DNA of 64,000 nucleotides, taken from NCBI GenBank assembly GCA_045862955.1, contig BTVI01000019.1, positions 981 through 64,980 of the forward strand. The letters run 5' to 3'. Within the stretch, counting starts at the first letter, position 1. The number at the start of each line of letters is the position of its first letter. Shown in pieces: positions 3,042-56,483 of this stretch. A program made the position numbers and the translations under genes. The notes under the pieces were generated by a model that saw only the letters and a list, made by a program, of their open reading frames with translations, did no database searches and was not told the origin of the DNA. The DNA is from Fimbriimonadales bacterium. Lineage in GTDB: Bacteria > Armatimonadota > Fimbriimonadia > Fimbriimonadales > JABRVX01.

Positions 3042-3461
3042 TCAGGTGCCGAGCAAGACGTCCGTCTCGCGAACGAACGCGAGCACACGGGAGCCGGGCT
3101 GCAATCCCATGCGCCGGGCGGAGGCTGCTGGGATGAGAGCGACCATCTCCTGGCCACCATCGAGGATCATCGTGACCTCGGCGAGGCCCTTGTCCATGTT
3201 GACCTGCTTCACCGTGCCCATCAGGCGGTTTCGCGTGCTGACTTCCAGGGCCAGCGGCAGCTCGGGTTCGGCAACCACTTTCGGCCCGAGAAGTTCGGCA
3301 CGGATCACCGCGACCTGCTCGGGTGAGTACCAGCGCCAGTTGCGCCAGTCGCGTTCTGGCGCGGGGATTTTGCCCGTGCGTTCCCACATGTAGAGCGTCT
3401 TCGGAGTCACCCCGAGCGCTGCGGCGGCTTCCGATCGGCTGAGCTTGCCTTGCTTCTCCAT
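3042..3461 (-). CDS. HTH (MerR/excisionase-type) regulator fused to a TOBE/Mop molybdate-binding domain
   Basis: Start re-picked at MEKQGK (the 179-aa track ORF has an implausible Arg/Cys-rich extension). The HTH is LSRSEAAAALGVTPKTLYMWERTGKIP. The C-terminus STRNRLMGTVKQVNMDKGLAEVTMILDGGQEMVALIPAASARRMGLQPGSRVLAFVRETDVLL matches the Mop/TOBE pattern (SARNxLxGxV...). Confidence 0.75.
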   Translation of the reverse strand: MEKQGKLSRSEAAAALGVTPKTLYMWERTGKIPAPERDWRNWRWYSPEQVAVIRAELLGPKVVAEPELPLALEVSTRNRLMGTVKQVNMDKGLAEVTMILDGGQEMVALIPAASARRMGLQPGSRVLAFVRETDVLLGT

Positions 3462-3548
3462 GGCTCGATAGTCTTGGATTCGACGGGCGGCGCCGACTCC
3501 TGCACCGGGGCAGGATTCCCTCTCCCGCCGGGGAAGGCAATCGGTGAG

Positions 3549-5501
3549 ATGGATGCACCGACTCGACCCGAGTTTCTTCACATCCCACCGGGCGGGCAGT
3601 TGCTTCTCTACGTCCTATCTGCCCTGGTGGTGTTGGCGCTGGTTTTCTGCATCTGGCGGCGAATGCGCCTCTGGATGCAGGGGAAGCCCACTCCCTATTC
3701 GCTGCGACCGGATTGGGCACGACTGCGTGCCATTTTGCGCGATGTGTTGTTGCAGCGCAAGGTGACCCGCTCGCGCAAGACGTTCGGCGCACCGATGCAC
3801 TGGCTGCTGTTCAGCGGCTTCGTAATCCTGTTCATCGGCACTACACTGCTTGCTATTCACCACTGGGCACCCGAGGGACTGAAGTTTCACCGTGGCACCT
3901 ATTACCTAGTCTACGAGGTGACGCTAGACGTCTTTGGTGTTGTGCTGTTCATCGGGCTGTTAGGAGCTATCGGGAGAAGGTATTTCGCCAAGCCGAAGTC
4001 GCTGGGACGGGAACCATCGGACCTATGGCTGTTAGGCTCTCTGTTAGCCATCACGATAACAGGATTCCTGGTCGAGGGAGGCCGCATTGAGCTGGTGCCG
4101 CAGCCGTATGACATCTACTCCCCCGTCGGATTAGGTGTGTCGCGGTGGATGGGATGGATCGATCCGGTATCGTACCAGGTGCTGTGGTGGGTGCATGCGG
4201 GCCTGGTGTTCGGGTTTCTCGTCACACTGCCCTTCACGCGCATTCGTCACATCGTGTACGCGATCTTCTCCACTTACATGGCGCCAGCGCGGCCGATGGG
4301 TGCGTTGGCACCTGTGTCCATGGAGGATGTGGAGAAGACCGGGAAGGTGGGTGCGAGCGAATGGCGAGATTATGATAGGTATCAACTCGCCTCGCTAGAC
4401 GCTTGCATGGAGTGTGGTCGCTGCACCGACGTTTGCCCGGCTACGGGCGTAGGCAAGTCCCTGGACCCACAGAGAATCGTGCAGGACCTACGTTCGATCG
4501 TGGGCAATGGCAAGCCGGTGGCCGAGGCGCTGTCCGAGGAAGCGTTGTGGGACTGCACCACATGCAACGCGTGTGTGCGCGAGTGCCCCGTGAACATTCG
4601 GCATGTAGACCTCATCGTGGATGCCAGGCGGTCGCTGGTAGCGGAAGGCAGGTTCGCGGGAACGGGCGCTAACATGCTGCGGCAGCTGGGTTCGACGATG
4701 AACGCATGGGGAGCATCGGGGACCGACCGCGAGGCGTGGATGGAGGGCCTCGACGTGCCGCTGGTACGTGACACGCCGCAGTTCGACGTACTGCTTTGGG
4801 TGGGGTGCGCGGGAGCCGTGGACAAGGGCGCCCAAAAGACGAACCGGGCGTTGGTAGGATTGCTCAAGCAGGCGGGTGTTAGTTTCGCGTGTCTCGGCAA
4901 CGAGGAGGTCTGTACGGGAGACCCGGCACGCAGGCTGGGAGAGGAGTTCTTGTTCCAAGCAATGGGCGAGGCGAATATCCAGACGTTCAAGCAGCGTGGC
5001 GTGAAGCGAATCCTGACTGCGTGTCCGCACTGCTATAACACCTTCGCCAATGAGTACCCGCAGTTCGGCGGGGTGTTCGAGGTGGAGCACCATACACAGT
5101 TCCTCGCACGCTTGGTGGCAGAGGGCAAGATCACGCCGCCGCGGGTGGGCAGCAAGGTGGCATGGCACGATCCGTGTTATGTGTCACGGGTGAATCGTGA
5201 CCCGCATTCGGCGCGCAAGGTGCTTCTGCCGATGCTCGACGGCTCCCTTCACGCGCCACGCGCCAAGGGCTTCGACACATTGTGTTGCGGCGCGGGCGGA
5301 GGGCGTATGTGGATGGAGGAGCCCGCAGAGAAGCGTCCCGGCAATCGCCGCGCCGAGCAACTGCTCGCTACGGGTGCGGAGACCATCGCGGTCGGGTGTC
5401 CCTTCTGCCGAATCATGCTCGGCGACAGTCTGGCGTTCCTGCGTCCGGACGGCGAGGTGAGGCTGGTGGACCTGGCGGAGATGTTGGCAGGGGAGGAGTA
5501 G
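3549..5501 (+). CDS. Membrane-anchored Fe-S oxidoreductase: NarI/DsrM-like transmembrane N-domain fused to an HdrD/GlpC/DsrK-like 2x[4Fe-4S] plus CCG domains
   Basis: Several TM helices in residues ~40-260. Ferredoxin motifs CMECGRCTDVCP and CTTCNACVRECP. CCG-type motifs (ACPHCYNTF, HDPCY, CCGAGGG, GCPFCRIML). Start chosen at MDAPTRPEF (3549). Confidence 0.7.
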   Translation: MDAPTRPEFLHIPPGGQLLLYVLSALVVLALVFCIWRRMRLWMQGKPTPYSLRPDWARLRAILRDVLLQRKVTRSRKTFGAPMHWLLFSGFVILFIGTTLLAIHHWAPEGLKFHRGTYYLVYEVTLDVFGVVLFIGLLGAIGRRYFAKPKSLGREPSDLWLLGSLLAITITGFLVEGGRIELVPQPYDIYSPVGLGVSRWMGWIDPVSYQVLWWVHAGLVFGFLVTLPFTRIRHIVYAIFSTYMAPARPMGALAPVSMEDVEKTGKVGASEWRDYDRYQLASLDACMECGRCTDVCPATGVGKSLDPQRIVQDLRSIVGNGKPVAEALSEEALWDCTTCNACVRECPVNIRHVDLIVDARRSLVAEGRFAGTGANMLRQLGSTMNAWGASGTDREAWMEGLDVPLVRDTPQFDVLLWVGCAGAVDKGAQKTNRALVGLLKQAGVSFACLGNEEVCTGDPARRLGEEFLFQAMGEANIQTFKQRGVKRILTACPHCYNTFANEYPQFGGVFEVEHHTQFLARLVAEGKITPPRVGSKVAWHDPCYVSRVNRDPHSARKVLLPMLDGSLHAPRAKGFDTLCCGAGGGRMWMEEPAEKRPGNRRAEQLLATGAETIAVGCPFCRIMLGDSLAFLRPDGEVRLVDLAEMLAGEE

Positions 5502-5799: not shown

Positions 5800-7302
5800 A
5801 TGAGCGAGCTGTTCCTTGGCATAGACGTCGGCACTTCGGGCCTCAAAGCGCTGGTAGTGGACCGAGACGGGAGAGTGCGCGGTCGCGGACTCGCCGAGTA
5901 CCCGCTTCACATCCCGCAGCCGCTGTGGGCGGAGCAGGACCCCGACGATTGGTGGGCCGGTGCTGCCACCGCCGTGCGCTCTGCGCTGGCCGAAGCGGGC
6001 GAAGGCCCTGTCGGCGCTTTGGGCCTCACCGGCCAGATGCACGGATCGGTGTTCTTGGATTCCGATGGGTCCGTCATCCGTCCCGCCATCCTATGGTGTG
6101 ATCAACGCACCGAAGCCGAGTGCCACGAGATCGAAGAGCGGGTACCTAACCTGGTAGAGATCACGTGCAACCCTGCCCTAACAGGCTTCACCGCACCGAA
6201 GGTGTTATGGTTACGCAAGAACGAACCCGCGAACTATGCACGTGTGCATCGTGTGCTACTACCTAAGGACTTTCTTCGTTACCGACTGACAGGCGTAGCC
6301 GCAACAGAGGTTTCGGATGCCTCGGGCACGAGCCTATTCGATGTGCCGAAGCGCACCTGGTCCGGTGAGGTGCTGGATCGTTTGGAGATTCCTAGAGAGT
6401 GGATGGCGCCAGTGTCCGAGTCGCCGGAAGTGACGGCACGCGTGTCCGCCGAGGGTGCCCGTCACATCGGGGTACCGGAAGGCACGCCGGTAGTAGGTGG
6501 CGGGGGCGATCAGGCTGCGGGGGCCGTGGGTGTCGGCATCGTGGGGCCCGGATTGGTGTCCGCCGCGATAGGCACCAGTGGAGTGGTCTTCACCACGCTG
6601 GACTCGCCAGAAGTGGACCCTGCCCTGAGCGCTCATACGTTCTGCCATGCGGTGCCGGGAAAGTGGCACGTGATGGGTGTTATGCTTGCGGCCGGTGGCA
6701 GCCTGCGGTGGTTTCGCGATACATTCTGTGAGGCGGAGAAGAAGCTGGCGAAGGAGCAGGGCCGTGACGCGTACGAGCTCATCTCGGAGCAGGCTGCAAC
6801 TGTCCCTCATGGAGCCGAGGGGTTAGTATTCCTTCCTTATCTTACTGGCGAGCGCACGCCGCACAAAGACCCCGCGGCACGGGGGGTGTTCTTCGGTGTC
6901 ACACTCAGTCACACCCGCGCGCACTTCGCTCGCGCTGTCATGGAGGGAGTGGCTTTCGGCCTACGCGACTCCTATCGGTTACTACAGGACATGGGTGCGA
7001 GTATCGGCGAAGTGCGTGCTTCTGGCGGTGGGGCGCGGAGCGATCTGTGGCTGCAGATTCTGGCAGACGTGACGGACCGACCCCACGTGCGAGTGGCGGT
7101 GGACGAAGGACCGGCTTACGGAGCCGCGCTGTTAGCGGGCGTGGGGGTCGGCGCATGGCCCAGCGTGGAAGCGGCTTGCGATGCAACGGTTCGGACTCTG
7201 GGTTGCTTTCGACCCGATGCGGATAGACATATGTTGTATGAGAACCGTTATACTCTCTTCCGCAATCTGTACAGCGACCTGAAGGCGCGGTTCCGCGAAT
7301 GA
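5800..7302 (+). CDS. xylB: Xylulokinase (FGGY carbohydrate kinase)
   Basis: Start at MSELFLGIDVGTSGLKALVVD. It has FGGY signatures (GQMHGSV, GGGDQAAGAVG, SGGGARS) and a length of ~500 aa typical of XylB. Confidence 0.8.
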   Translation: MSELFLGIDVGTSGLKALVVDRDGRVRGRGLAEYPLHIPQPLWAEQDPDDWWAGAATAVRSALAEAGEGPVGALGLTGQMHGSVFLDSDGSVIRPAILWCDQRTEAECHEIEERVPNLVEITCNPALTGFTAPKVLWLRKNEPANYARVHRVLLPKDFLRYRLTGVAATEVSDASGTSLFDVPKRTWSGEVLDRLEIPREWMAPVSESPEVTARVSAEGARHIGVPEGTPVVGGGGDQAAGAVGVGIVGPGLVSAAIGTSGVVFTTLDSPEVDPALSAHTFCHAVPGKWHVMGVMLAAGGSLRWFRDTFCEAEKKLAKEQGRDAYELISEQAATVPHGAEGLVFLPYLTGERTPHKDPAARGVFFGVTLSHTRAHFARAVMEGVAFGLRDSYRLLQDMGASIGEVRASGGGARSDLWLQILADVTDRPHVRVAVDEGPAYGAALLAGVGVGAWPSVEAACDATVRTLGCFRPDADRHMLYENRYTLFRNLYSDLKARFRE

Positions 7303-8459
7303 TGGGGCGTGAGCGGATAGATATCCGGATTGATATGCAACGGGCCGAGGCTGCGCGGCGGCGTTTCGAGGCTCTGGAGCGATTCGAGTACGTGGATCGC
7401 GTGCCTGTAAGCATGGGCTTCGAGGCGCAGTTCTTCCTGGCGGAACGAGGAGTCTCCTGGGAGGAGTACTTCTCGGACCCCGTTACTCAGATGCGCCATC
7501 AACTCCTGAACCGGAAGCTACTATACGAGATGGCCCCGGACGATCGACCCTTCGATGGCACTATCACACTCAATCCCGATTTTCAGAACGTCGTGAACTC
7601 CAGCGCCGCTGGGTGCGAGATCGAATGGCTGGCCAACGATCCGCCGCGCGCCAAGCCGTTTCTTCGTGACGAGGTGGACCTCCGGCAGCTTCAGAAACCT
7701 GCTCCCGATGCAGGGCTTTGGGGCAGGTCGTTGCAGTGGTATCGTGCTATGCTCGAGGCCAGAGACCGGTTCGATGTGCGAGTGAATGGGGAGTCGGTCC
7801 CTCTCAACATCCACGTGGGAGTGACGGGTGACACGCCTTTCATTATGATGGTGGATGCCGCACAGCAGAACCTGTTCGTGTGGATGATGGAATGCCCGGA
7901 GCTGCTGCGCGATGCGATGTCCAAACTGACACAGGGTATCATCGAGGCGGAATACGCCTTTCGTCGGATGCGTGGTGCAGAGCTCGACTACGGGTTCTGG
8001 CTCTCGGATGACCCGGTGCCCATGCTCAGCAACGAGCAGTATCGGGAGCACGTCGCTCCTCACACGCTAGCGCTTTACGAAGCGTTGTCACGTCCGGGCG
8101 CACCCAGAGGCATGCACCTGTGTGGTCGCAACACCCACGTGATACCGACCCTCATAGATTACCTCCACATCACCTCCTTGGATGGTGCCGGATACGTGAA
8201 TCGTCCCGAAGACTACGTGGGCACCCTCGCGGGCAAAGTGGTGTTCCGCGGTAACCTAGACCCCATGCTACTGCTGAACGGACCCGTTAGCGAGATCGAG
8301 CGTGCCGCGCACCATGTGATGTCGGTGTTGGCTCCCTATGGCGGACTGCACTTGCAGGATGGCTATAACATTTGTCCACATACACCGTGGGAGCACATTC
8401 GTGCGGTGGTCGACGCGGCGGAGGAGCACGGCCTTCCGCGCCTGGAGCGGCCCGCATGA
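7299..8459 (+). CDS. URO-D-like (uroporphyrinogen decarboxylase / MtaA-CmuA methyltransferase superfamily) protein
   Basis: 386 aa. The C-terminal half (HLCGRNTHVIPTLIDYL...GNLDPMLLLNG...LQDGYNICPHTPWEHIRAVVDAAEEHG) follows the URO-D family layout. Its ATG overlaps the xylB stop (ATGA). Confidence 0.6.
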   Translation: MMGRERIDIRIDMQRAEAARRRFEALERFEYVDRVPVSMGFEAQFFLAERGVSWEEYFSDPVTQMRHQLLNRKLLYEMAPDDRPFDGTITLNPDFQNVVNSSAAGCEIEWLANDPPRAKPFLRDEVDLRQLQKPAPDAGLWGRSLQWYRAMLEARDRFDVRVNGESVPLNIHVGVTGDTPFIMMVDAAQQNLFVWMMECPELLRDAMSKLTQGIIEAEYAFRRMRGAELDYGFWLSDDPVPMLSNEQYREHVAPHTLALYEALSRPGAPRGMHLCGRNTHVIPTLIDYLHITSLDGAGYVNRPEDYVGTLAGKVVFRGNLDPMLLLNGPVSEIERAAHHVMSVLAPYGGLHLQDGYNICPHTPWEHIRAVVDAAEEHGLPRLERPA

Positions 8460-10279
8460 GCGATCACACTGTCACGGTGCTGCCCGAGGGTAGTCGGCTC
8501 GAGGCAAGGACTGGACAACCGTTGCTCGACGCGCTCCATGATCTCCGGCACTTCATTCCCGCCGACTGCGGCGGCCTGGGCACGTGCGGTAAGTGCCGCG
8601 TGCAGGTGCTACAGGGTCGGACAACGCTGAACGACATCGAGCGCAAGCAGCTTACGGAGCTGGAGATCGATCAGGGTATGCGCCTCGCTTGCCAACAGCG
8701 AGTGGAAGGTGACTTGTGGCTCACCCTGCCGCTCCGAGTGGAGACCGAGGACGAGACCAAGACACGCGGCGTCGAGTCTCTGCGAGAATACCCGCTAGAC
8801 CATGGCATCACCAAGAGTGTTATAGCGATACCGAAGGAGGCACCGGACAACGCTCGTTCGTGGCTGCAGGTGGCAGGATTGAGTCCTCCGGATTCCTCGC
8901 TCCTGCGCGTAGCTCGGTCGCTTGCCCGGTTGCGTGCTGCAGAAAAAGACGTTGCGACGTGCGTGTACGCAGACGGTGAGTTGCTGGCCTTAGAGGAAGG
9001 CGATACGCGTGACGAAGCCTTTGCCCTGGCGATAGACATCGGGACTACTACCATCGCAGGCTACCTGGTGTCTCTGAAGGGCGATGGCGTGGTGGCAGCG
9101 GCTTCGTGTGCAAATAGCCAGGGTCGCTGGGGCTCGGACGTCCTGAGCCGGATCACCGCAGTGACCGAGCAAGACAGTCGGCTGGCCGAGATGCAACGAG
9201 AGGTGCGAGACGACATCAATCGGCTGATTGCCGAGATGTGCCGGCGTGCGAAGGTGCGGCAGCATCGAATCTATCGGCTGTGTGTGGTAGGAAATCCGAC
9301 GATGGCCTGCCTGATGTTAGGTATTCATCCCGTGACACTGGGCATGTCACCCTACGCTCCGCTGACTACGAAGGAGATCGCCTTTGTCGCATCGGAGTTA
9401 CACCTCTCTCTGCCCGATACCGCGCGATGTGTGTTTGCGCCGTGTGTGTCGGGGTACGTTGGTGCCGACCTGGTGGCCGCGGCGGTGGCTACGGACCTCG
9501 ACCGCCGGGACGAGCTCGCGTTTCTGTTGGACGTAGGTACCAACGGTGAGACGCTGCTGGGCAATCGGCATGGTGTTTTGGGTGGTAGCAACGCTGCGGG
9601 ACCCGCCTTCGAGGGTGCGCGTATCAGCCAGGGAATGCGAGCGAGCCGAGGCGCGATCGAGAGGGTGCGGATCGACGACGGCGAAGTACAGCTGGGCGTA
9701 ATAGGTGATGCGCCCCCACGCGGCATCTGCGGATCGGGGCTGATTGATGCAGTAGCGGCGCTGTTGAACGCCGGTGTGGTGGAGTCGACGGGCAGAGTTC
9801 TGGCACCCGAGGAGTGCCCGCCGTCTCTGATGGACAGAGTGGTACCTAGCCAGGGGGGATACGGTTTCGTGTTAGCAGCCGAGTCCGAGACCGCGCTCGG
9901 CAAGCCGGTGATGCTAACTCAGCGGGACATTCGCGAGGTACAGCTCGCGACGGGAGCAATCGCTGCGGGTAGGCGCATTCTGTGCCGTGAAGCGGGGCTG
10001 GACGAGACGGAGCTTCCGCGTGTGCTAGTTGCCGGCGCGTTCGGGAGTCACATCGATCCGGTCGCAGCCATGCGCATCGGGTTGCTACCGAAGGTGCCGA
10101 TCGAGCGCGTCGAAAGCGTAGGAAACGCTGCAGGCTACGGTGCCTGCATGATGGCGATGAACCGAGAGGCTGAGCGCCGCGGCTGCGAGATCGCTGCGAG
10201 CACGCGCTACGTGGAGTTCGCGAGACAACCGGACTTCCAAGACCTGTTCGTCGAGTGTATGCTTTTCCCAGAAAGTTAG
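8456..10279 (+). CDS. RACo-type corrinoid activation protein: N-terminal [2Fe-2S] ferredoxin plus an ASKHA ATPase (DUF4445-like) domain
   Basis: Start at MSDHTVTVLPEG, overlapping the upstream stop (ATGA). Plant-type ferredoxin cysteines are CGGLGTCGKCRV...LACQ. ASKHA phosphate motifs are AIDIGTTTIAGY and LLDVGTNGETL. Confidence 0.75.
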   Translation: MSDHTVTVLPEGSRLEARTGQPLLDALHDLRHFIPADCGGLGTCGKCRVQVLQGRTTLNDIERKQLTELEIDQGMRLACQQRVEGDLWLTLPLRVETEDETKTRGVESLREYPLDHGITKSVIAIPKEAPDNARSWLQVAGLSPPDSSLLRVARSLARLRAAEKDVATCVYADGELLALEEGDTRDEAFALAIDIGTTTIAGYLVSLKGDGVVAAASCANSQGRWGSDVLSRITAVTEQDSRLAEMQREVRDDINRLIAEMCRRAKVRQHRIYRLCVVGNPTMACLMLGIHPVTLGMSPYAPLTTKEIAFVASELHLSLPDTARCVFAPCVSGYVGADLVAAAVATDLDRRDELAFLLDVGTNGETLLGNRHGVLGGSNAAGPAFEGARISQGMRASRGAIERVRIDDGEVQLGVIGDAPPRGICGSGLIDAVAALLNAGVVESTGRVLAPEECPPSLMDRVVPSQGGYGFVLAAESETALGKPVMLTQRDIREVQLATGAIAAGRRILCREAGLDETELPRVLVAGAFGSHIDPVAAMRIGLLPKVPIERVESVGNAAGYGACMMAMNREAERRGCEIAASTRYVEFARQPDFQDLFVECMLFPES

Positions 10280-10647
10280 TGTGAGGTCTCGGACTCGTTC
10301 GGCTCGTCGTGCTCCTCCGACTCGTTCGACTTGTCAGCCTCCTTGTTTGCAGCCTGCACCTTCTCGTCGAAACCAGCCGTGTATTTGTCAGGATCGCGGT
10401 CGAATTCCGCTTTGCACGAGGGGCACTGGAAGTAGTAGCGCTTGCCTTCGTATACGGATGTAGGGGCAGCCTTCACGTCTTCGATTCGGTGCCCCGTCAC
10501 CGGGCAGATGGGTGGCATGTCTTGCACGGCTGCTGCCGTCTTGAGCGAAGAACCACCCGTCGCAGTCGGCTGCTCGGGCGCCCCGCCACATCCAGCCATG
10601 AGAACCACGACGCAGATACCTGTTAGTACGAACCAGCTTGCTCTCAT
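10276..10647 (-). CDS. Lipoprotein with a YHS/TRASH-type metal-binding domain
   Basis: Signal peptide with lipobox VVLMAGC. PICPVTGHRIEDVKAAPTSVYEGKRYYFQCPSCKAEFDRDPDKY resembles a YHS domain. The tail is acidic. Confidence 0.6.
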   Translation of the reverse strand: MRASWFVLTGICVVVLMAGCGGAPEQPTATGGSSLKTAAAVQDMPPICPVTGHRIEDVKAAPTSVYEGKRYYFQCPSCKAEFDRDPDKYTAGFDEKVQAANKEADKSNESEEHDEPNESETSH

Positions 10648-32843: not shown

Positions 32844-33075
32844 ACTGCGCACTCCCTCCTAAGACGCCAAAAAGGGAGACCGACGCTGCCTTGCTCGGTC
32901 GCCGCTTTGCACCTCTTGTCGAACATATTCTACCGATCCGCAGGCACCGTGTCAAGCAACTCCCATTATGGCAATCCGTGGGCCAAGCTGGACCGAGCCA
33001 GGCAACCGGAGCCCCCAGCAGCCGATGATCCCAATAGATCGCGCGATTCTACGTGTCGGCCGAGAGGAGGTCCCC

Positions 33076-36000
33076 ATGGCGGATTGGAGCAGCAGCATGC
33101 GGGTGGAGATGTTCGGGCACTCGGACGAGGTGCCGCTCACCAACGCCTGGGGGCAAAACTACCCGAGCTTCTTGGACGAGCCGATGGCGGGCCTGCTCGG
33201 CATCGAGCCGGGGCATCGGGTGCTAGACGTCGGTGGCGGGCAGTATCCGTTCGCCTATGCCGCGCTGAGTCTGGATGCGTTCGTGGACGACGACATCCAC
33301 CGTCAGGGTAAGGCTGCGGTGCGCACCGTGCCACTGGTCGCGGGGTACGCAGAGCGCATGCCGCTGAAGGACGGCTCCTTCGACTTCGTGATCAGCAGGC
33401 ACACTCTCGAGCACGTCCTGGACCCCGAGGCGGTGGCGAGAGAGATGAGCCGTGTAGCAAAGGGCGGCTTCGTGGATACCCCCGGACCCGTCTTCGAAAA
33501 CGTCCTCGGTTTTCCACCCCATCTATGGATTATCTCCGTGGAGGACGACACGCTGGTCTTTCGCAGGCGCAAGTGGCTGCGGAACCCGCTGCTGAATGCC
33601 ATGCGTCCGTTCTGGTGGTTCGACGCCGCCTCGCGGTTCGACTTCGAGTTGAAGTATCGGAACGTGACAATGACCCAGCATCGGTGGCAGGGAGAGCTGC
33701 GCGTGCGTGTAGAGGATGATGGCACCGCTCCAGACTATACGGCTCCGGAGAACGCCGCCCTCGCGCACCTGGACTTTGCGCTGAACGCCCTGACGATGTG
33801 CACGCCACCCGTGCACGAGGTGAAGCAGGACATTGCAATGGCCTTGCGCTTCCGCCCCGACTGGGCGTTGGCGCACAACGCTCTCGGCGTCGTTCTTTGG
33901 GCTGAGAACCGGCGGGAGGAAGCGTTGGAGCGTTTCCGGTTGGCAGCCGCGCTGGACCCGGCCCAGCGGGAGTTTGCCGAGAACGCACGGCTCGCTCCGT
34001 CTTCGGAGGGGCGCCCTAGGTTGGTGCCGCTGCCCGAAGAGCAAGTTCCCCCATACCCCGACGTTGCCCGGATGGCAGAAGACCTACAGATCGGCCCCGA
34101 GACCAGCGTGCTGGAGATCACTGGGTCTGCACCTTGGTTCGCACAGGCGGAAGTACGGCAGTTTCAGCCGGACGGCTCGCTGGCTACAGACAGGGCGCGT
34201 TACGACGTGGTGATCGTGCGCGAGGGTCTCGGCGAGGTGCAGGACCTCGGGGCGACGTTCGCGCGGCTGGAGTCCCTCGCCGGACGGGGATACGTGGAGC
34301 TACCGACCAAGACCGCAGCCGCCCTGCTCGCTTCACCGGCCATGCAGTGGTACGCCGAGCCATGGGGCTCTGGGCTCGCGGCGTTCCGACGTCCTGACGG
34401 GCAGAGCGCCTGCCGCCATCTGCTGGCAGTGCTGGAGCGCGTTCACGAGGACGTCGCGAGAAGGCTAGCAGCGAACCCGTATGGCGTAGTGCGTGTCGGC
34501 AAGACTTGGAAAGGGCGCATTGGCATCGAGATCCGCCGCACGCAAGGCTACGACGCATCGGATCCGGCGCAGAGGGCGCAGGCAGAGGCCGCGTATCGTA
34601 CATCCCTGAGCCGAGTCGGAGTGGCGGAGCCGCCGCGTCTTGCAGAGGACGAGAAGCGATCGCGGCCTCGGGGCCAGGGCACACCCGAGCCGCCGACCTG
34701 GCTCTTGCCACTCGCGGAAATGCTCTCCGAACCGCAAAGCAAGCGCCGCGGCTACTTCGTGGGCTGTCCCTCCTTGGGTGAAGCGGCTCGTGCTCGGGGC
34801 TGGAGCATTCTAGCAGGCACGCAGGCGATGCGAAAGGCGGAATTGCTGGTCGCGTGGCAGTGCGAAGCAATCTCGTCAGATACGCTCGTGAAGCTGGCTA
34901 CCGAGGCACGCCGGGGCAGTCTCGTGATCCTCGGCTTTCCGCCGTCCGAAAACTTCGAACACCTGCGGGGCAAGCTGGAGACGCTGTTCCAGGCAACCGT
35001 ACATTTCGTGGACCCGGACTCGGACTGCTCGCGGCTGGTGGCGGTGCTGTGGAATCGGGAACGCATCTCCGTGGCTCGGAAGACTCTGGTCTCTCTGCAC
35101 CGGAACGCCTTTCGCATGATGGGTGGCGGCGAAGCCGTGGTCTTTCAGACGCTGATGAAGGCGGGGCGCGAAGCAGGCGTGAGGGCCGACGTAACGGCAG
35201 CCTTGCGCTTGCGGCCAGACCCGCATGACGTAGTTCATGTGGTCTCGCTGTACCAACCCGACCACGCAGCGACTATTCGGAGCTGGCCGAAGCCGAAGGT
35301 CGTAATGCCCATTCACTGGGACGGTCCCCGGGTTCGCTGGGTCACTGCGGTTCTCCCCTATGTCCTGTCTCCAGACCGACCGGAAGAGGAGCGACGCCAG
35401 CTTCTGCGGCTCTACGCGGACCGCACGCTGGCGGCCAACGGCGTCACGCTGGAGCAGGCACGCGAATCGGGCGAAGTGATCCGGGCGTTGCGTTCCGTGC
35501 GCGACCTCGGAGACCGCGTGGTAGCGACGGGGCCGCAGGAACTGACAGCCATGGACCAGATGCTGGGTCCGACCTCGGCGGACACCGGCAGCGTGCATTT
35601 GGGTGTGGACACGGAACTGTTTCGGAGCGCCGATGCCAGACAGTTCGAGAGAGCCTTTGGCCTGCGTGACTTCGTGCTGTGCGTCGGACGCGTCGAGCCC
35701 ATGAAGAACCAACTCATGACTGCGTACGCGCTGCGCGAGACGGGCCGAAAGATCGTCTTGCTCGGAGGCTCGTCGGATCCCGAATACCTCGCTTTGTGTA
35801 AGCGCTGGGGTGGCGAACAGCTGGTGCACATCGCGAATCAGCCGCCGTGGATGGTGGCCTCCGCGTACAGAGCCGCTGCATGCCACGTGTTGGCCAGTTG
35901 GTGGGAGGTCCCGGGCCTCGTAAGTGTCGAGGCTGCCGTCGCGGGCTGCCCAGTGGTTGCCACCGAGTGCGGAACCATTCGACATTACCTAGGCGACGAT

Positions 36001-36504
36001 GCGTGGTACTGCGACCCGGCGGACCCCGACTCGATTCGTACGGCAGTGGAGGAGGCGTGCGGGGCGAAGGGCTCGGAGCGCGTACGCCGATTGCAGGAGC
36101 GGTGCAGCGCCGAGTTCTCGCACCGCCGATGCGCCCAGGCCTATCGCGCCATCTACGACGATTTGGCAGGAGCGGGGCGCCGCCGATTCCTACTCACGCC
36201 GGACTGGCAGCGGCGGGAGACTTGGGAGCCGTTCGTACGGGAATACCTCCGCACCTACTCCCAAGCGGACAGCGTGACCTTGTGCCTTCTGGTTGAGGAG
36301 CCGACCGGGGCAGGCGCCGAAGAGGCGGAGAGGATGGTGCAGGACCTGCTTGCGAAGGAGGAGATCGAGCTGGAGTCCTGCGCGGACATAGAGCTGGTGG
36401 ACCTGGCATCGGTCGGCACGATCGCCGGGCTCATCGGGTGCGGGTCGGAGGCGGAAGCGAAGCTCCACGCGGCGTTGGGGCTGACGGCAGAGAAGGTGGC
36501 CTAG
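33076..36504 (+). CDS. Giant multidomain protein: class I SAM methyltransferase, TPR, two degenerate MTase-like modules, a GT4 (group 1) glycosyltransferase, and a C-terminal conserved tail
   Basis: Start at MADWSS (ATG 33076, SD GAGGAGG). MTase motifs are VLDVGGGQYPF and MPLKDGSFDFVISRHTLEHVLDPEAVAREMSRVAKGG. The TPR-like segment is ALAHNALGVVLWAENRREEALERFRLAAALDP. The GT1 C-domain is GRVEPMKNQ...WWEVPGLVSVEAAVAGCPVVATECG. The tail begins FLLTPDWQRRETWEPFVREYL. Confidence 0.75.
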   Translation: MADWSSSMRVEMFGHSDEVPLTNAWGQNYPSFLDEPMAGLLGIEPGHRVLDVGGGQYPFAYAALSLDAFVDDDIHRQGKAAVRTVPLVAGYAERMPLKDGSFDFVISRHTLEHVLDPEAVAREMSRVAKGGFVDTPGPVFENVLGFPPHLWIISVEDDTLVFRRRKWLRNPLLNAMRPFWWFDAASRFDFELKYRNVTMTQHRWQGELRVRVEDDGTAPDYTAPENAALAHLDFALNALTMCTPPVHEVKQDIAMALRFRPDWALAHNALGVVLWAENRREEALERFRLAAALDPAQREFAENARLAPSSEGRPRLVPLPEEQVPPYPDVARMAEDLQIGPETSVLEITGSAPWFAQAEVRQFQPDGSLATDRARYDVVIVREGLGEVQDLGATFARLESLAGRGYVELPTKTAAALLASPAMQWYAEPWGSGLAAFRRPDGQSACRHLLAVLERVHEDVARRLAANPYGVVRVGKTWKGRIGIEIRRTQGYDASDPAQRAQAEAAYRTSLSRVGVAEPPRLAEDEKRSRPRGQGTPEPPTWLLPLAEMLSEPQSKRRGYFVGCPSLGEAARARGWSILAGTQAMRKAELLVAWQCEAISSDTLVKLATEARRGSLVILGFPPSENFEHLRGKLETLFQATVHFVDPDSDCSRLVAVLWNRERISVARKTLVSLHRNAFRMMGGGEAVVFQTLMKAGREAGVRADVTAALRLRPDPHDVVHVVSLYQPDHAATIRSWPKPKVVMPIHWDGPRVRWVTAVLPYVLSPDRPEEERRQLLRLYADRTLAANGVTLEQARESGEVIRALRSVRDLGDRVVATGPQELTAMDQMLGPTSADTGSVHLGVDTELFRSADARQFERAFGLRDFVLCVGRVEPMKNQLMTAYALRETGRKIVLLGGSSDPEYLALCKRWGGEQLVHIANQPPWMVASAYRAAACHVLASWWEVPGLVSVEAAVAGCPVVATECGTIRHYLGDDAWYCDPADPDSIRTAVEEACGAKGSERVRRLQERCSAEFSHRRCAQAYRAIYDDLAGAGRRRFLLTPDWQRRETWEPFVREYLRTYSQADSVTLCLLVEEPTGAGAEEAERMVQDLLAKEEIELESCADIELVDLASVGTIAGLIGCGSEAEAKLHAALGLTAEKVA

Positions 36505-36545: not shown

Positions 36546-36622
36546 TGGTCGGGGCGGGCGGATTTGAACCGCCGACCTCACCCACCCGAAAGGTGCGCTC
36601 TACCAAGCTGAGCCACGCCCCG
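36546..36622 (-). tRNA. tRNA-Pro (anticodon CGG), CCA encoded
   Basis: Hand-folded cloverleaf. The acceptor is CGGGGCG/CGCCCCG. The D arm is GCTC-AGCTTGGTA-GAGC. The anticodon arm is CACCT-TTCGGGT-GGGTG (CGG, with G37). The T arm is GGCGG-TTCAAAT-CCGCC. The discriminator is A, followed by CCA. Confidence 0.9.
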
Positions 36623-50661: not shown

Positions 50662-50736
50662 GCCGATGTAGCTCAGTGGCAGAGCAGCTGTTTCGTAAAC
50701 AGCAGGTCGTCGGTTCGAATCCGACCATCGGCTCCA
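50662..50736 (+). tRNA. tRNA-Thr (anticodon CGT), CCA encoded
   Basis: Hand-folded. The acceptor is GCCGATG/CATCGGC. The D arm is GCTC-AGTGGCA-GAGC. The anticodon arm is GCTGT-TTCGTAA-ACAGC. The T arm is GTCGG-TTCGAAT-CCGAC. The discriminator is T, followed by CCA. Confidence 0.9.
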
Positions 50737-51333: not shown

Positions 51334-51357
51334 TCAACCACACGCTCAGGTCTAGTC

Positions 51358-52452
51358 GTGAGTGTTCTTCACACTGAGCCACCCGCCCCAGACGCAAAGG
51401 CGATGCTGGCGTGCTTGTTGCGCGAGGGCACTCCCAGCAGGGTGCACTACATCGAGCTCTACTTGGACCGTGAGGTGCAAGAGGCCATCGCACGGGAGTA
51501 CCACCTGTGGGATGACATAGCAGCCTCCGACGAGCTAGCGACCTATTGGCAGTCGCAGATCGTGCTGCAGCGGTTTCTGGGATACGATTACGTGACTTGC
51601 GGCTTGGAAGAGCAAGAGTGGGTGTTCCGCAAGGAGGTCGCAGCCGACACCGCAGCTTTGCCTCGAATGGGTGGCAGGTCCTTCATGAGTCAGACGGAGG
51701 GCCCGATCACCTGCCGGGCGGAGTTCGACGCCTACCCGTGGCCCGACCCGAGGAAGGCCACCTCGCGAGCCCTGGAGTATCTGGAGCGGCACCTTCCCGA
51801 TGACATGTGCGTACTGTACGGGCAGGTCGGACATTTCATGGAGCACCTCACCTGGCTGATGGGCTATGAGACGCTGTGCTATGCGCTGACCGACGATCGC
51901 GATCTGGTGCGCGACATAAGCGACCGACTGATCGACTACTACGTGGTCTGTGTGGAGCGACTACTGGAGTTCGAGCGCGTGCGCATCGTGTGGGGGAGCG
52001 ATGACATGGGCTTTCGCTCCGGCACGTTGATCAGCCCCGCCGATCTGCGCGAGTTCGTGCTGCCTGGCCACGCGCGCCTTGCGGAAATGTGCCACGCGGC
52101 TGGAAGGCCATACATTCTGCACTCGTGCGGCGAGCTGAGCGCCATCATGACGGACCTGTTGGACGACGTGCGCATAGACGGCAAGCACTCCTATGAGGAC
52201 ACAATCCTTCCACCCGAAGAGGCTAAGCGGTTGTACGGCGACAGGACCGCCATCCTCGGTGGCATCGACGTCGGCTTCCTGTGTCGTGCCGACGAGGCGG
52301 CCGTGCGTGCTCGCGTGCGGACCACGCTGGATGCCTGCATGCCCGGCGGCGGGTTCTTGCTGGGCACCGGCAACAGCGTCGCTAACTACATACCACTACC
52401 GAACTACCTCACGATGTTGGACGAGGGCCGGCAGTGGAGGCCTTCGGCATGA
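51358..52452 (+). CDS. URO-D-like (uroporphyrinogen decarboxylase / MtaA-like superfamily) protein, paralog 2
   Basis: GTG start. ILHSCGELSAIMTDLLDDVRIDGKHSYED...LGGIDVGFL...GGGFLLGTGNSVANYIPLPNYLTMLDEG follows the URO-D family layout. Confidence 0.6.
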   Translation: MSVLHTEPPAPDAKAMLACLLREGTPSRVHYIELYLDREVQEAIAREYHLWDDIAASDELATYWQSQIVLQRFLGYDYVTCGLEEQEWVFRKEVAADTAALPRMGGRSFMSQTEGPITCRAEFDAYPWPDPRKATSRALEYLERHLPDDMCVLYGQVGHFMEHLTWLMGYETLCYALTDDRDLVRDISDRLIDYYVVCVERLLEFERVRIVWGSDDMGFRSGTLISPADLREFVLPGHARLAEMCHAAGRPYILHSCGELSAIMTDLLDDVRIDGKHSYEDTILPPEEAKRLYGDRTAILGGIDVGFLCRADEAAVRARVRTTLDACMPGGGFLLGTGNSVANYIPLPNYLTMLDEGRQWRPSA

Positions 52453-54599: not shown

Positions 54600-55258
54600 A
54601 GCGTCGTGGCAGTCTCACCGTTATCTGCGGTGGAATGTTCGCTGGCAAGTCCGAGGAGCTGATACGTCTCATCCGCCGTTCCCTATACGCCAGGAAGAAG
54701 GTCCAGGCGTTCAAGCACGCGTACGACACCCGGTACTCCGAGACGGAGATTGCTACCCACGAAGGCGTCAAGCTGAATGCCATAGCCGTCCGCAGCTCTG
54801 CCGAGCTGGAAAAACTCCTGCTGCCGGACACCGAAGTGGTAGCCATCGAAGAGGCGCAATTCTTCGATGCGTTGTTACCCGACCTTTGCAATCGGCTCGC
54901 GGACAAGGGCAAGACGGTGTTAGTTGCGGGACTGGATCAGGACTTTCGACGAGAGCCGTTCGGCCCTATGCCGAAGCTGTTGGCACTGGCAGACGAGGTG
55001 GTCAAGCTTCGGGCGATCTGCGTGCGGTGCGGTAACACGGCCAGCCACACACAACGGCTCGTGGACGGGCGACCTGCGTCCTACCACGACCCCATCGTGC
55101 TGGTAGGCGCGAGCGAGCGATACGAAGCGCGCTGCAGGCACTGTCACGAACTGCCAGATGCACCCAAGCCGCGGAAGCGTTCCCGCACACGTGCCTCGAA
55201 CAACCCGACGTACGTGCGCGAGCAGCGGGAGCTATTCGATGACCTCAACCGAACCTAG
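54596..55258 (+). CDS. tdk: Thymidine kinase
   Basis: Start at [22 protein letters not shown] (P-loop), overlapping the upstream stop (ATGA). It shows AIEEAQFF and the zinc motifs CVRCG...RCRHCH. It has a ~35-aa basic C-terminal extension. Confidence 0.85.
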
Positions 55259-56483
55259 CATCTCGAATCACGACCGCACCACGCTGCGCGATCTAGCAAA
55301 GCGCGTGGCAGAAATCGCCTCGCTTCCGACCATGCAGGAACGGCGTGACATGTGGACGCGCCACAACAGCCTCGAGCGCGTACGGCCCATGATCCTCGTG
55401 TTCCCGGAAGGTTCCTGGGAAGAGCTGCTACCCCAGTCCTCGCTGGTATGTGAGGGTGAAGCCACGCGCGCCATGGAGTGGAACCTGCGCGCACGAATCT
55501 ACACCTACGAGCACTTCGATGATGACACCGTGTGCGAGGGACGCTGGATTGTTCGGAGACGTATCACCGACACCGGGTGGGGGCTCCAAGCGAGGCAGAC
55601 CGACAGCACGATGGAGCGCGGCTCCTGGGCGTTCGACCCGGTCATACGTGGTTGGGACGACCTAGAGAAGCTCCGCATGCCCGAGGTCATCGTAGACGAC
55701 GACGGAAGCACGCGCGACCTGGAGATTGCGCACGAACTGTTCGGTGACATTTTGCAGGTGGTGCAGAAGGGCATTGCGCACATCTCCTTCCACATGATGA
55801 ATGTATATACCAAGCTGCGCGGGCTCGAGCAGGTGATGGTGGACATGGTGGAACAGCCCGAGATGGTGCACGCAGCCATGTCACTGCTAACAGAGGGGCA
55901 CCGGCAGCTCGTTGCGCAGTATCAGGCGATGAACCTGCTGAGTCTGAACAATGACGAGACGTACTGCTCGACAGGCGGGAACGGGTACACGCGAGACCTG
56001 CCGGCGCCAGGCTTCGACCCGGACCGGGTTCGGCCTTGCGATATGTGGGCATCTGCAGAGACGCAGGAGTTCGCGGTAGTCTCGCCGAGGATGCACGAAG
56101 AGTTCGCATGGCAGTACGAGCGCACGCTTTTGGAGCCCTTCGGCCTGACGGGATACGGCTGCTGCGATCCGTTGCATGACAAATTGCACCTGGTGTTCAG
56201 CCTACCTAGCATGCGACGAATCTCGGTGGCACCCTTGGCCGACGTGATCAAGTGTGCAGAGGGTATCGGGACAAAGGCCATCTTCTCCTGGAAGCCACAG
56301 CCGTCTCACTTGGTTGGTGAGTTCGACCCATCCTTCATCGAGAAGTACATCCGTAGCACACTCGATGTGACGAGAGACTGTGTCATCGAGATGGTGCTGA
56401 AGGACACCCACACATGCGAGCACGAGCCGGAGCGATTCACCGAGTGGACCCGAGTAGCCAAGCGCCTGGCCGAGCAGTACTAA
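55239..56483 (+). CDS. Hypothetical protein, possibly a divergent URO-D-like TIM-barrel (paralog 3)
   Basis: Start at MTSTEPSIS, overlapping the tdk 3' end by 20 nt. The C-terminal layout ([12 protein letters not shown]...ISVAPLADV...[11 protein letters not shown]...[22 protein letters not shown]) parallels the other two URO-D-like proteins. The canonical motifs are weak. Confidence 0.35.

Follow-up and report, generated by a model that had tools for sequence, protein, structure and literature searches.

A translationally coupled xylulokinase, URO-D-like and RACo operon as a candidate reduced corrinoid methyltransferase module attached to sugar catabolism in a Fimbriimonadales bacterium

The window analyzed here, the whole stretch of DNA under study, comprises 64 kb from a Fimbriimonadales bacterium. 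In its list of open reading frames, three frames on the + strand are joined as one operon at positions 5800-10279. The first gene, xylB (5800-7302, + strand), encodes a 500-aa FGGY-family xylulokinase; the second, here termed URO-D1 (7299-8459, + strand), encodes a 386-aa MtaA-like protein of the URO-D fold that is a candidate substrate-specific methyltransferase; and the third, RACo (8456-10279, + strand), encodes a 607-aa protein with [2Fe-2S] ferredoxin, middle and ASKHA ATPase domains. The initial annotation had described these genes as coupled by two ATGA stop/start overlaps, and both were read directly in the sequence on the + strand, at 7299-7302 between xylB and URO-D1 and at 8456-8459 between URO-D1 and RACo, the latter being the position at which relatives carry a corrinoid-protein gene. 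Both overlaps are kept in the 92%-identical sister species (locus L001), and the 4-bp overlap between xylB and URO-D1 has been maintained across a dS of approximately 0.85, whereas a gap of 36 bp separates the pair in a more distant relative (locus L004). The three genes form a single translationally coupled operon. Neither a xylose isomerase gene nor a methyl-sugar-specific glycosidase gene was found adjoining it.

Profile searches bore out all three family calls of the initial annotation, namely XylB, the URO-D fold and RACo. The xylB product matched FGGY_N and FGGY_C in Pfam and scored 546.5 bits against the TIGR01312 XylB equivalog model (cutoff 380.25); its substrate is predicted by family. 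With the kinase heading the orthologous cluster at L004 it shares 76% identity. The 607-aa protein matched Fer2 (E=3e-11), Raco_middle (E=1.6e-49) and RACo_C_ter (E=2.8e-77), the RACo family being defined here by PF14574, PF17651 and PF00111. Residues 3-606 aligned with residues 3-621 of the Carboxydothermus hydrogenoformans RACo (PDB 3zyy; E=5e-85), and the protein thus has the ferredoxin domain as well as middle and ASKHA domains collinear with those of a solved RACo. The DIGTTT and DVGTNGE motifs are present in the translation, and the four ferredoxin cysteines (C-x5-C-x2-C...C) are visible. An assignment to AcsV, the activator of CoFeSP in the Wood-Ljungdahl pathway, was rejected (NCBIfam NF040756, 401 bits; cutoff 800).

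The URO-D1 protein matched PF01208 over profile positions 5-346 of 346 (E=2.6e-23; 83.1 bits, cutoff 23.9). Its AF2 model (pLDDT 93.9) had MtaA (4ay7) as the top Foldseek match, level with UROD structures (probability 1.0, TM 0.65-0.73), and both the Pfam threshold and the (beta/alpha)8 fold place it in the URO-D superfamily. The initial annotation had called this protein URO-D-like and had noted that MtaA/CmuA-type methyltransferases share the fold; the fold call held, but the protein does not belong to the curated MtaA/CmuA families, the scores being 37.2 bits for TIGR01463 (cutoff 235.4) and 41.8 bits for PRK06252 (cutoff 244). It is likewise not a HemE uroporphyrinogen decarboxylase (TIGR01464, 24.3 bits; cutoff 302.95). 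In both sequence and modeled fold, URO-D1 is about equidistant from MtaA and HemE, and cobalamin-independent MetE barrels also resemble it in these comparisons. His273-x-Cys275 of URO-D1 aligned with the zinc-binding HxC of MtaA 4ay7, and this HxC, together with Asp354, is invariant in 18 URO-D1 homologs. The distal (third) zinc cysteine of MtaA aligned to a position that varies among Tyr, Phe, Gly and Ala in the URO-D1 subfamily; Cys359 is not conserved, Asp354 being invariant instead.

No corrinoid carrier was found in the window, as the initial annotation had stated. Beyond the operon, Pfam scans of 40 large stop-to-stop frames revealed no B12-binding domain in the 64 kb; tblastn of the 64 kb with two corrinoid-protein queries gave a best E value of 0.3; and a 120-sequence HMM run with --max over the same 64 kb gave a best E value of 0.82. 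In addition, tblastn detected no remnant of a corrinoid-protein gene at the URO-D1/RACo junction, and no cobalamin riboswitch was found in the 64 kb. A client corrinoid protein is thus encoded with RACo neither within the 64 kb nor on the syntenic sister-species contigs, that species likewise lacking the carrier there. Of the four components of a complete system (MT-I, corrinoid protein, MT-II and activase), the window carries a candidate MT-I and the activase. As for its other content, the GH10, GHL10 and GH27 enzymes reported initially were all confirmed, and of the two further URO-D paralogs reported with them, one was confirmed. This paralog, at 51334-52449 on the + strand and 41 kb from the operon, matched PF01208 (E=1.8e-17) and aligned with the URO-D1 family in its C-terminal half (hhalign probability 97%). 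It shares only approximately 25% identity with the URO-D2 proteins of the relatives described below and was rejected as their ortholog; no corrinoid-protein gene lies beside it, and it is a possible trans partner of the operon. The likely second candidate, the frame at 55107-56480, had no Pfam match and showed only faint hhalign similarity (probability 12%, E=0.0026).

Loci of relatives revealed a fuller module. In L004, the closest non-conspecific relative (URO-D 61%, XylB 76% and RACo 60% identity), the gene order is xylB, URO-D1, corrinoid protein, RACo and URO-D2. The corrinoid protein there has 211 aa, a B12-binding domain and the DxHxxG motif; its gene occupies exactly the position of the URO-D1/RACo junction of the window, and its stop codon and the RACo start share a GCATGA, as at that junction. 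At L006/L019 (53% identity) the order is URO-D1, corrinoid protein, RACo and URO-D2, and this module adjoins a genuine methanol system of MtaB and MtaA-MtaC. All four components thus occur together in L004 and L006, while at L011 RACo is flanked by four URO-D genes. RACo immediately adjoins URO-D1 in four separate lineages (the window with L001, L004, L006 and L011), a corrinoid protein immediately adjoins URO-D1 in L004, L006 and L067, and RACo is encoded with a corrinoid protein at the orthologous loci L004, L006 and L018; the RACo to which that of the window is 60% identical, in L004, comes after a corrinoid protein. Conservation of the exact xylB/URO-D1/RACo triplet, which had been proposed as a check on the initial annotation, was found in the two species to which the window lineage amounts and, if two additional genes are allowed, in the 61% relative L004, but not beyond these. 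No close URO-D2 ortholog was found for the window lineage, the best non-self match being 48% identical. Because L004 carries the carrier gene at the overlap position, the window operon appears, on gene order, to be a reduced form of an ordinary corrinoid methyltransferase module of four genes, namely URO-D1, corrinoid carrier, RACo and URO-D2. The relatives thus largely resolve the puzzle of the missing carrier, and the operon does not appear to be a new carrier-free design.

Selective constraint was evaluated by comparison with the sister species, at a dS of approximately 0.85. The dN/dS values were 0.054 for URO-D1 and 0.087 for RACo, against 0.040 for pheS and 0.073 for pheT, and the value for xylB was 0.080. 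Because their dN/dS ratios of 0.05-0.09 are like those of pheS and pheT, URO-D1 and RACo are under equally strong purifying selection, which indicates functional genes rather than relics.

The orthologs of URO-D1 also pointed to sugars. More than 30 loci of Ignavibacteriota/Bacteroidota carry a URO-D1 ortholog in a sugar-utilization operon, in which a TonB-dependent receptor is followed, further along, by URO-D1, an unknown 526-aa protein, a GH15-like protein, an aminotransferase, a XylB-like FGGY kinase, an AraG/XylG-like ABC ATPase and an SSF symporter. At four loci the ortholog lies among a RhaD-aldolase/SDR fusion, DUF4432 and a RhaA-like isomerase, with a sugar ABC transporter adjoining, and at L015 a URO-D gene and a corrinoid-protein gene are interleaved with sugar isomerase-like and enolase-superfamily genes downstream of GH38. 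The URO-D1 orthologs of unrelated phyla occur in two different sugar-operon designs, and at least two different FGGY subfamilies occur near them. This genomic context indicates that the sugar link of the URO-D1 subfamily is real and cross-phylum. The link to sugar catabolism drawn in the initial annotation is strengthened by these orthologs in sugar operons of other phyla, many of them with a XylB-like FGGY kinase, while its more specific claim, that plant methylated sugars lose O-methyl groups and then feed the xylulose pathway, is still inferential. Neither a corrinoid protein nor RACo was found within 8-10 kb at most of the orthologous loci (more than 30). The corrinoid link is thus real but patchy, and because most loci have no carrier and RACo nearby, corrinoid dependence of the subfamily as a whole is putative.

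We propose, with a probability of roughly 50%, that the operon is a reduced corrinoid methyltransferase module attached to sugar catabolism that demethylates a modified sugar. Sugar methyl ethers block ordinary glycolytic processing; they occur, for example, in xylan (4-O-methyl-glucuronate), in pectin (2-O-methyl-xylose and 2-O-methyl-fucose) and in glycans of algae and bacteria (methyl-rhamnoses and 6-O-methyl-galactose). URO-D1 would be a substrate-specific, probably metal-dependent (His273-x-Cys275, Asp354) methyltransferase whose methyl donor is a modified sugar, with an O-methylated sugar the most plausible, and whose acceptor is a Co(I) corrinoid. RACo would re-reduce corrinoid that has fallen to the inactive Co(II) state, using ATP and its [2Fe-2S] cluster, and XylB would phosphorylate the ketopentose formed downstream. 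Other parts of the genome would have to provide the carrier and the methyl-acceptor transferase, or URO-D1 might use a free or self-bound cobamide. In this scheme, we infer that URO-D1 transfers methyl groups and binds a metal, that its substrate is a sugar and that a carrier acts in trans. Methylated-sugar demethylation is, on the genomic comparisons, the best-fitting hypothesis and is offered as a candidate only. A wider proposal, which we advance tentatively, is that URO-D1 could be the first corrinoid-dependent O-demethylase family for methylated sugars, doing without oxygen what the P450 sugar demethylases do with it, and distributed across sugar-utilization loci of Armatimonadota and Ignavibacteriota/Bacteroidota. 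The methyltransferase would accompany the sugar genes and could draw on a shared carrier, activase and acceptor transferase acting in trans, and the window would be an extreme case in which only the methyltransferase and the activase were kept with a pentulose kinase. Our literature search found no paper on corrinoid-dependent sugar demethylation.

The module might instead take methyl groups from compounds other than sugars, for instance methanol, methylated thiols or selenides, or methoxylated aromatics, the adjacency of xylB being inherited and the overlaps having arisen by later compaction. The L006/L019 unit, which sits with MtaB, the MtaA-MtaC fusion, DUF1638 and PFOR in a methylotrophy-style island without a kinase, is consistent with this scenario, as is L011, where URO-D genes and RACo occur with DUF1638 and a protein bearing a homocysteine S-methyltransferase domain; type 1 mlp clusters have been proposed to act on methyl-sulfur/methyl-selenium compounds (PMC10418091), and strict adjacency of xylB and URO-D1 was observed in no lineage other than that of the window and L004. 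However, the occurrence of the subfamily in sugar operons of unrelated phyla, in two designs and with at least two FGGY subfamilies, is not expected from chance synteny, and the long-maintained overlap between xylB and URO-D1 also argues against this scenario, which we consider rather unlikely. A doubtful explanation, in our estimate, is that URO-D1 is a corrinoid-independent sugar enzyme, for example a metal-dependent decarboxylase, an isomerase or a MetE-like direct methyltransferase, and that the client of RACo is a different protein, perhaps a corrinoid enzyme encoded far away, like MetH, or a non-corrinoid redox partner. The initial annotation had likewise named a non-corrinoid role of the third protein as its alternative. 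The many orthologous loci and the 64-kb window without a corrinoid protein, the equidistance of URO-D1 from HemE and MtaA, its resemblance to the MetE barrels and the replacement of the third zinc cysteine are all in line with such an enzyme. Against it stand the low HemE score, the adjacency of RACo to URO-D1 in four lineages and of a corrinoid protein in three, and the translational coupling of URO-D1 with RACo in the window; moreover, to our knowledge, only corrinoid proteins are clients of RACo-type activases. That URO-D1 and RACo are functionless passengers decaying behind xylB after loss of the corrinoid-protein and URO-D2 genes would agree with the absence at the locus of half of the ancestral four-gene module and with the failure to find a URO-D2 ortholog for the lineage, but is highly improbable, since both frames are intact in two species, the dN/dS values strongly disfavor it, and the ferredoxin cysteines, ASKHA motifs, HxC and Asp354 are all retained.

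Among known systems, the gene set of L004 and L006 is that of the O-demethylase systems of acetogens and Desulfitobacterium (Acetobacterium dehalogenans OdmA-D/VdmB), with a URO-D-superfamily methyltransferase I, a B12-binding carrier of approximately 210 aa, a second methyltransferase and a RACo-type ATP-dependent activator, the likeness being one of gene set. Both these systems and the present proposal would involve transfer of an ether methyl group to Co(I). However, the O-demethylase substrates are aryl methyl ethers, whereas the URO-D1 contexts point to sugar catabolism; both methyltransferases of the L004/L006 module are of the URO-D fold, unlike in the O-demethylase systems; and the window version has neither the carrier nor the second methyltransferase. 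For the methanol/methylamine:CoM systems (MtaB-MtaC-MtaA with RamA), MtaA 4ay7 is the solved structure closest to URO-D1 by both sequence and fold, with HxC aligned, and a corrinoid protein and an activase likewise accompany URO-D1 in relatives; URO-D1 differs in its score (37 bits against 235), in the non-conserved third zinc cysteine and in having no coenzyme M context, and the genuine MtaA-MtaC fusion in L006 is separate and clearly distinct from it. Type 1 mlp clusters contain several MtaA-like URO-D proteins, a corrinoid protein and a RACE/RACo activase but no tetrahydrofolate methyltransferase, and their substrate is not known (Kountz & Balskus, bioRxiv 2023, PMC10418091). Their architecture resembles those of L004, L006 and L011, a likeness in gene content; they are defined by the Mlp2 and Mlp3 clades, a corrinoid protein and a RACE activase, whereas the window has no corrinoid protein, and they come from obligate anaerobes, mostly Firmicutes, with sugars unmentioned (PMC10418091). 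The C. hydrogenoformans RACo (PDB 3zyy/4c1n) has the same domain order as the window RACo, to which it aligns over the full length; there the client is CoFeSP, a two-subunit protein of the Wood-Ljungdahl pathway, whereas the expected client of the window RACo would be a small corrinoid protein of the MtaC/MtgC type, not encoded nearby.

A functional analog of the proposed role is the P450 6-O-methyl-D-galactose demethylase of marine Bacteroidota, for which the account in PMC6292453 describes O-methyl removal encoded in polysaccharide-utilization loci. That enzyme, as presented there, relieves a block to sugar catabolism by taking off an O-methyl group, but it belongs to an unrelated family, depends on O2 and releases formaldehyde, whereas the present system would carry out a redox-neutral, O2-free methyl transfer. 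In our literature search, this O2-dependent P450 was the only sugar-demethylation route found, and no description of an O2-free route was encountered. The comparison thus yields a candidate: a distinct URO-D subfamily that recurs in sugar operons and in some lineages is flanked by a B12 carrier and an ATP-driven repair enzyme, and for whose genes the label 'uroporphyrinogen decarboxylase' is a wrong annotation. If this proposal is true, corrinoid methyl transfer would reach beyond C1 compounds and aromatics to include carbohydrates, polysaccharide degraders would have an additional, unrecognized B12 dependency, and the induction of B12-related proteins on xylan and pectin, which has been reported without explanation (PMC6547498), could be accounted for.

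The operon comprises three genes on the forward strand of the window, whose G+C content is 63%. The first, xylB (5800-7302, +), encodes a 500-aa protein that carries both FGGY domains and scored 546 bits against the XylB equivalog model (cutoff 380). The second (7299-8459, +) encodes the 386-aa protein URO-D1, which matched the Pfam URO-D family across the full profile with 83 bits against a cutoff of 24. The third (8456-10279, +) encodes a 607-aa corrinoid reductive activase (RACo) with Fer2, Raco_middle and RACo_C_ter domains; its sequence shows the cysteines of the ferredoxin domain as well as DIGTTT and DVGTNGE. Over its entire length the protein aligned with the solved structure of RACo from Carboxydothermus hydrogenoformans (3zyy, E=5e-85); it scored below the curated AcsV threshold, and its membership of the RACo family is solid. 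The initial annotation had assigned the same three families and reported an ATGA stop/start overlap at both junctions; the families were confirmed by Pfam, the XylB equivalog and the 3zyy alignment, and the overlaps by direct reading of the sequence. Scans of the sequence for promoters and terminators returned nothing exceeding shuffled expectation.

URO-D1 fell below the cutoffs of the curated models for both MtaA/CmuA (37 bits, cutoff 235) and HemE (24 bits, cutoff 303), and sequence searches matched it to MtaA with E=3.8e-5 and to HemE with E=2.4e-4. Its AlphaFold model, built on an 18-sequence alignment, was confident (pLDDT 93.9). A Foldseek search with this model recovered the URO-D fold, with MtaA (4ay7) ranked first, UROD structures essentially equal to it (TM 0.65-0.73) and cobalamin-independent methionine synthase barrels next. 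The HxC of the MtaA zinc site aligned with H273-x-C275 of URO-D1, which is invariant across the subfamily; the distal cysteine of MtaA is not conserved there, and D354-G355 nearby is invariant. Judging from these residues and scores, URO-D1 represents a distinct URO-D subfamily with a plausible candidate metal site. We infer its role as a methyltransferase from genomic context, not from family membership.

The small B12-binding corrinoid protein expected as the client, or carrier, of RACo was then sought in the window. Pfam revealed no B12-binding domain in 40 large frames lying beyond the operon, two corrinoid proteins used as tblastn queries reached no better than E=0.3, and an HMM built from 120 corrinoid proteins, run over the window with --max and no filters, gave a best E of 0.82. 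Together these searches bore out the absence of a B12-binding protein reported from the 64 kb and ruled out a hidden or degraded gene within the window, where no cobalamin riboswitch was found as a marker of B12 either. A search for homologs of the corrinoid protein returned thousands of matches at 55-60% identity, many of them from Armatimonadota; the label Fimbriimonadia was absent among the 120 matches listed, which is uninformative about a carrier elsewhere in the genome. Two candidate carriers were considered for the genome of the window, and both came from other organisms.

Close relatives of URO-D1 are few, 18 being recovered by a word-indexed search. The exact protein was present on three Logan contigs with unchanged gene order, and a 92%-identical URO-D1 was found in a MAG labelled Fimbriimonadia (GCA_039961735.1), where the order of a CCG/4Fe-4S membrane protein, xylB, URO-D1, RACo, a convergent YHS gene and pheTS is as in the window, and the neighbourhood of the three genes contains no corrinoid protein. 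In L004, the closest non-conspecific relative (identities of 61% for URO-D1, 76% for XylB and 60% for RACo), the order is xylB, URO-D1, a B12-binding protein of 211 aa that carries a DxHxxG motif, RACo and a second URO-D gene, URO-D2 (358 aa). A 53% relative (L006, and L019 in a named MAG) carries URO-D1, corrinoid protein, RACo and URO-D2 beside MtaB, an MtaA-MtaC fusion that is genuine by the MtaA/CmuA model (257 bits, cutoff 235), DUF1638 and PFOR. The bacterial MtaB and MtaA-MtaC fusion of L006 (5586-9945; uncultured bacterium WY3.bin81 / GCA_027392375.1) constitute a methanol methyltransferase system in a non-methanogen that abuts the URO-D1 module directly. The motif GCATGA joins the stop of the corrinoid-protein gene to the start of RACo in L004, and the stop of URO-D1 to the start of RACo in the window. 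As read from these gene orders, the simplest history is an ancestral module of URO-D1, corrinoid protein, RACo and URO-D2 from which the carrier and URO-D2 would have been cleanly lost in the lineage of the window. A search for a URO-D2 orthologue in this lineage gave a best non-self match of only 48% identity, which suggests loss, though the MAGs are incomplete.

To compare genomic contexts, loci were drawn from one genome per GTDB species (21 loci) and from JGI metagenomes (32 loci) and annotated with HMMs built from the sequences of this analysis, with spot checks against Pfam and NCBIfam. Type A, represented by the window, L001 and L004, has the order xylB, URO-D1, corrinoid protein (where present), RACo and URO-D2 (where present). 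Type B (L006/L019 and L011) consists of multi-methyltransferase islands with RACo and DUF1638. On the 8.8-kb contig of L011 (1-8786), RACo and DUF1638 accompany four or five URO-D paralogs and a protein with a homocysteine S-methyltransferase domain; a separate corrinoid protein is absent from the contig, making this another carrier-less arrangement. Type C is one conserved co-directional operon in more than 30 loci of Ignavibacteriota/Bacteroidota. It runs from a TonB-dependent receptor, a T9SS-tailed 853-aa protein, a PorV-like protein and a 496-aa unknown to URO-D1, followed by a 526-aa unknown, a GH15-like protein of 760 aa, a class V aminotransferase, a XylB-like FGGY kinase (284-291 bits, under the XylB cutoff), an AraG/XylG-like ABC ATPase and an SSF symporter; the operon of L037 continues with a LarA-like racemase and a UlaE-like epimerase. 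An Ignavibacteriota/Bacteroidota operon of high conservation surrounds the URO-D1 orthologue in L032 (839-20379) and in L026, L043, L050, L059, L062, L065 and others. The three large Ignavibacteriota proteins (~496, 526 and 760 aa) had no PDB sequence matches and no significant Pfam matches, the 760-aa protein showing only a weak GH15/trehalase-like signal; they are probably uncharacterised glycoside hydrolases of a glycan-utilisation locus. An attempt to reach the substrate through them failed for want of informative matches.

In Type D (L022, L038, L042 and L049; 3177-13552 in L038), a RhaD-aldolase/SDR fusion, DUF4432, URO-D1, a second URO-D and a RhaA-like isomerase, in this order, adjoin a sugar ABC transporter, which suggests that the substrate in these lineages is a methylated deoxyhexose of the rhamnose or fucose type. 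Chthonomonadales loci, grouped with this type, contain a tandem URO-D pair close to a sulfatase, a beta-helix protein and an aldo-keto reductase. Neither a corrinoid protein nor RACo occurred within 8-10 kb in Types C and D, except in L067, which has a corrinoid protein 300 bp downstream. In L015 (5379-10163; GCA_034434675.1), downstream of a GH38 mannosidase, a more distant URO-D (412 aa) and a 213-aa corrinoid protein alternate with genes for an AP_endonuc_2 sugar isomerase-like protein and for an enolase-superfamily (MR_MLE) protein; this locus independently places a B12 carrier in the midst of genes for sugars or sugar acids. Taken over all four contexts, sugar kinases, isomerases, aldolases, transporters and GH-like genes are therefore the most constant association of the URO-D1 subfamily. 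This sugar link is real and crosses phyla. The link to corrinoid machinery is patchy, but where it occurs it is strong, the genes being direct neighbours and translationally coupled.

We propose, with a probability of about one half, that URO-D1 is the corrinoid methyl-transfer component acting on a modified sugar, with RACo repairing the corrinoid and XylB acting downstream. URO-D1 would be the substrate-specific part of the system, preparing a modified sugar, most plausibly one that is O-methylated, for the usual isomerase, kinase and aldolase reactions. The methyl group would pass to a Co(I) corrinoid, RACo and ATP would repair oxidised Co(II), and XylB would take on the resulting ketopentose. 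The specific methyltransferase would travel with the sugar genes, while the carrier, acceptor transferase and activase could be shared; such a modular arrangement would account for the patchy corrinoid association and would allow the operon of the window to function with a carrier encoded elsewhere. That the module instead acts on a non-sugar methyl donor, with xylB as a passenger, would fit the Type B islands and has a precedent in the mlp clusters (PMC10418091); the Type C and D contexts speak against it and make it unlikely. It is doubtful, too, that URO-D1 works independently of corrinoids and that RACo serves another client: many loci lack a corrinoid protein and URO-D1 is as distant from MtaA as from HemE, but RACo or a corrinoid protein directly adjoins URO-D1 in several lineages, and URO-D1 and RACo are coupled in the window.

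Selective constraint was estimated between the window and the sister species (L001, 92% identical) by the NG86 method, with dS of ~0.85. The dN/dS values were 0.054 for URO-D1, 0.087 for RACo and 0.080 for xylB, with 0.040 for pheS and 0.073 for pheT as comparison genes, and both ATGA overlaps were kept in the sister species. Therefore, URO-D1 and RACo have been maintained by selection although the operon of this lineage has no carrier gene, and they are not relics; that the operon is a decaying remnant, as its missing carrier gene might suggest, is contradicted by these ratios and very improbable.

Other genes of the window were also inspected. The GH10, GHL10 and GH27 enzymes listed in the initial annotation were all present. 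Of the two further URO-D paralogs that it had counted, only one was confirmed (51334-52449). The other may have been the 458-aa ORF at 55107-56480 (+), which was not supported as a third URO-D: its codon bias is coding-like, it has no Pfam match, and at the profile level it only faintly resembles URO-D1, over the N-terminal two-thirds of that protein (hhalign probability 12%, E=0.0026). A gap of about 300 bp separates xylB from the upstream gene (3450-5501, +) of a membrane protein that combines two CCG domains with a 4Fe-4S dicluster (HdrD/GlpC/DsrK-like). The sister species has kept it in that position (dN/dS 0.052); we rejected it as part of the module, given the gap and its absence from L004, and that it donates electrons to RACo is conceivable, though unsupported. 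Further upstream, a queuosine-type pair (radical SAM QueE-like and PTPS/QueD-like) and a MerR-TOBE regulator (1897-2748 and upstream, -; counterpart at 4546-6113 in L001) appear unrelated to the operon. A YHS-domain lipoprotein gene (10276-10647, -) converges on RACo with a 4-bp overlap of the 3' ends, in the position occupied by the second URO-D gene in relatives. Two tRNA genes were located (36549-36622, -; 50662-50733, +); the latter falls inside the stop-to-stop frame initially taken as the beginning of a GNAT ORF, so the GNAT gene must start further downstream. A 1213-aa fusion of a SAM-methyltransferase and a GT4 glycosyltransferase domain (32863-36504, +) may synthesise methylated glycans in this organism.

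The comparison brings out a striking pattern and, with it, a candidate for sugar demethylation under anoxic conditions that can be tested directly; its chemistry and substrate we infer entirely. Our literature search found no paper describing corrinoid-dependent demethylation of sugars; the sugar-demethylation route that it returned is an O2-dependent P450 (PMC6292453). B12-related proteins have been reported, unexplained, as induced on xylan and pectin in C. cellulovorans (PMC6547498). In gene content (a URO-D-type methyltransferase, a corrinoid protein and an activase), the ancestral module matches the O-demethylase systems known from acetogens as well as Mta/Mtb systems, and it likewise matches the recently described mlp clusters (PMC10418091). 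What is new is a URO-D subfamily whose ties to sugar catabolism cross phylum boundaries, together with a reduced operon that keeps only URO-D1 and the activase joined to a xylulokinase.
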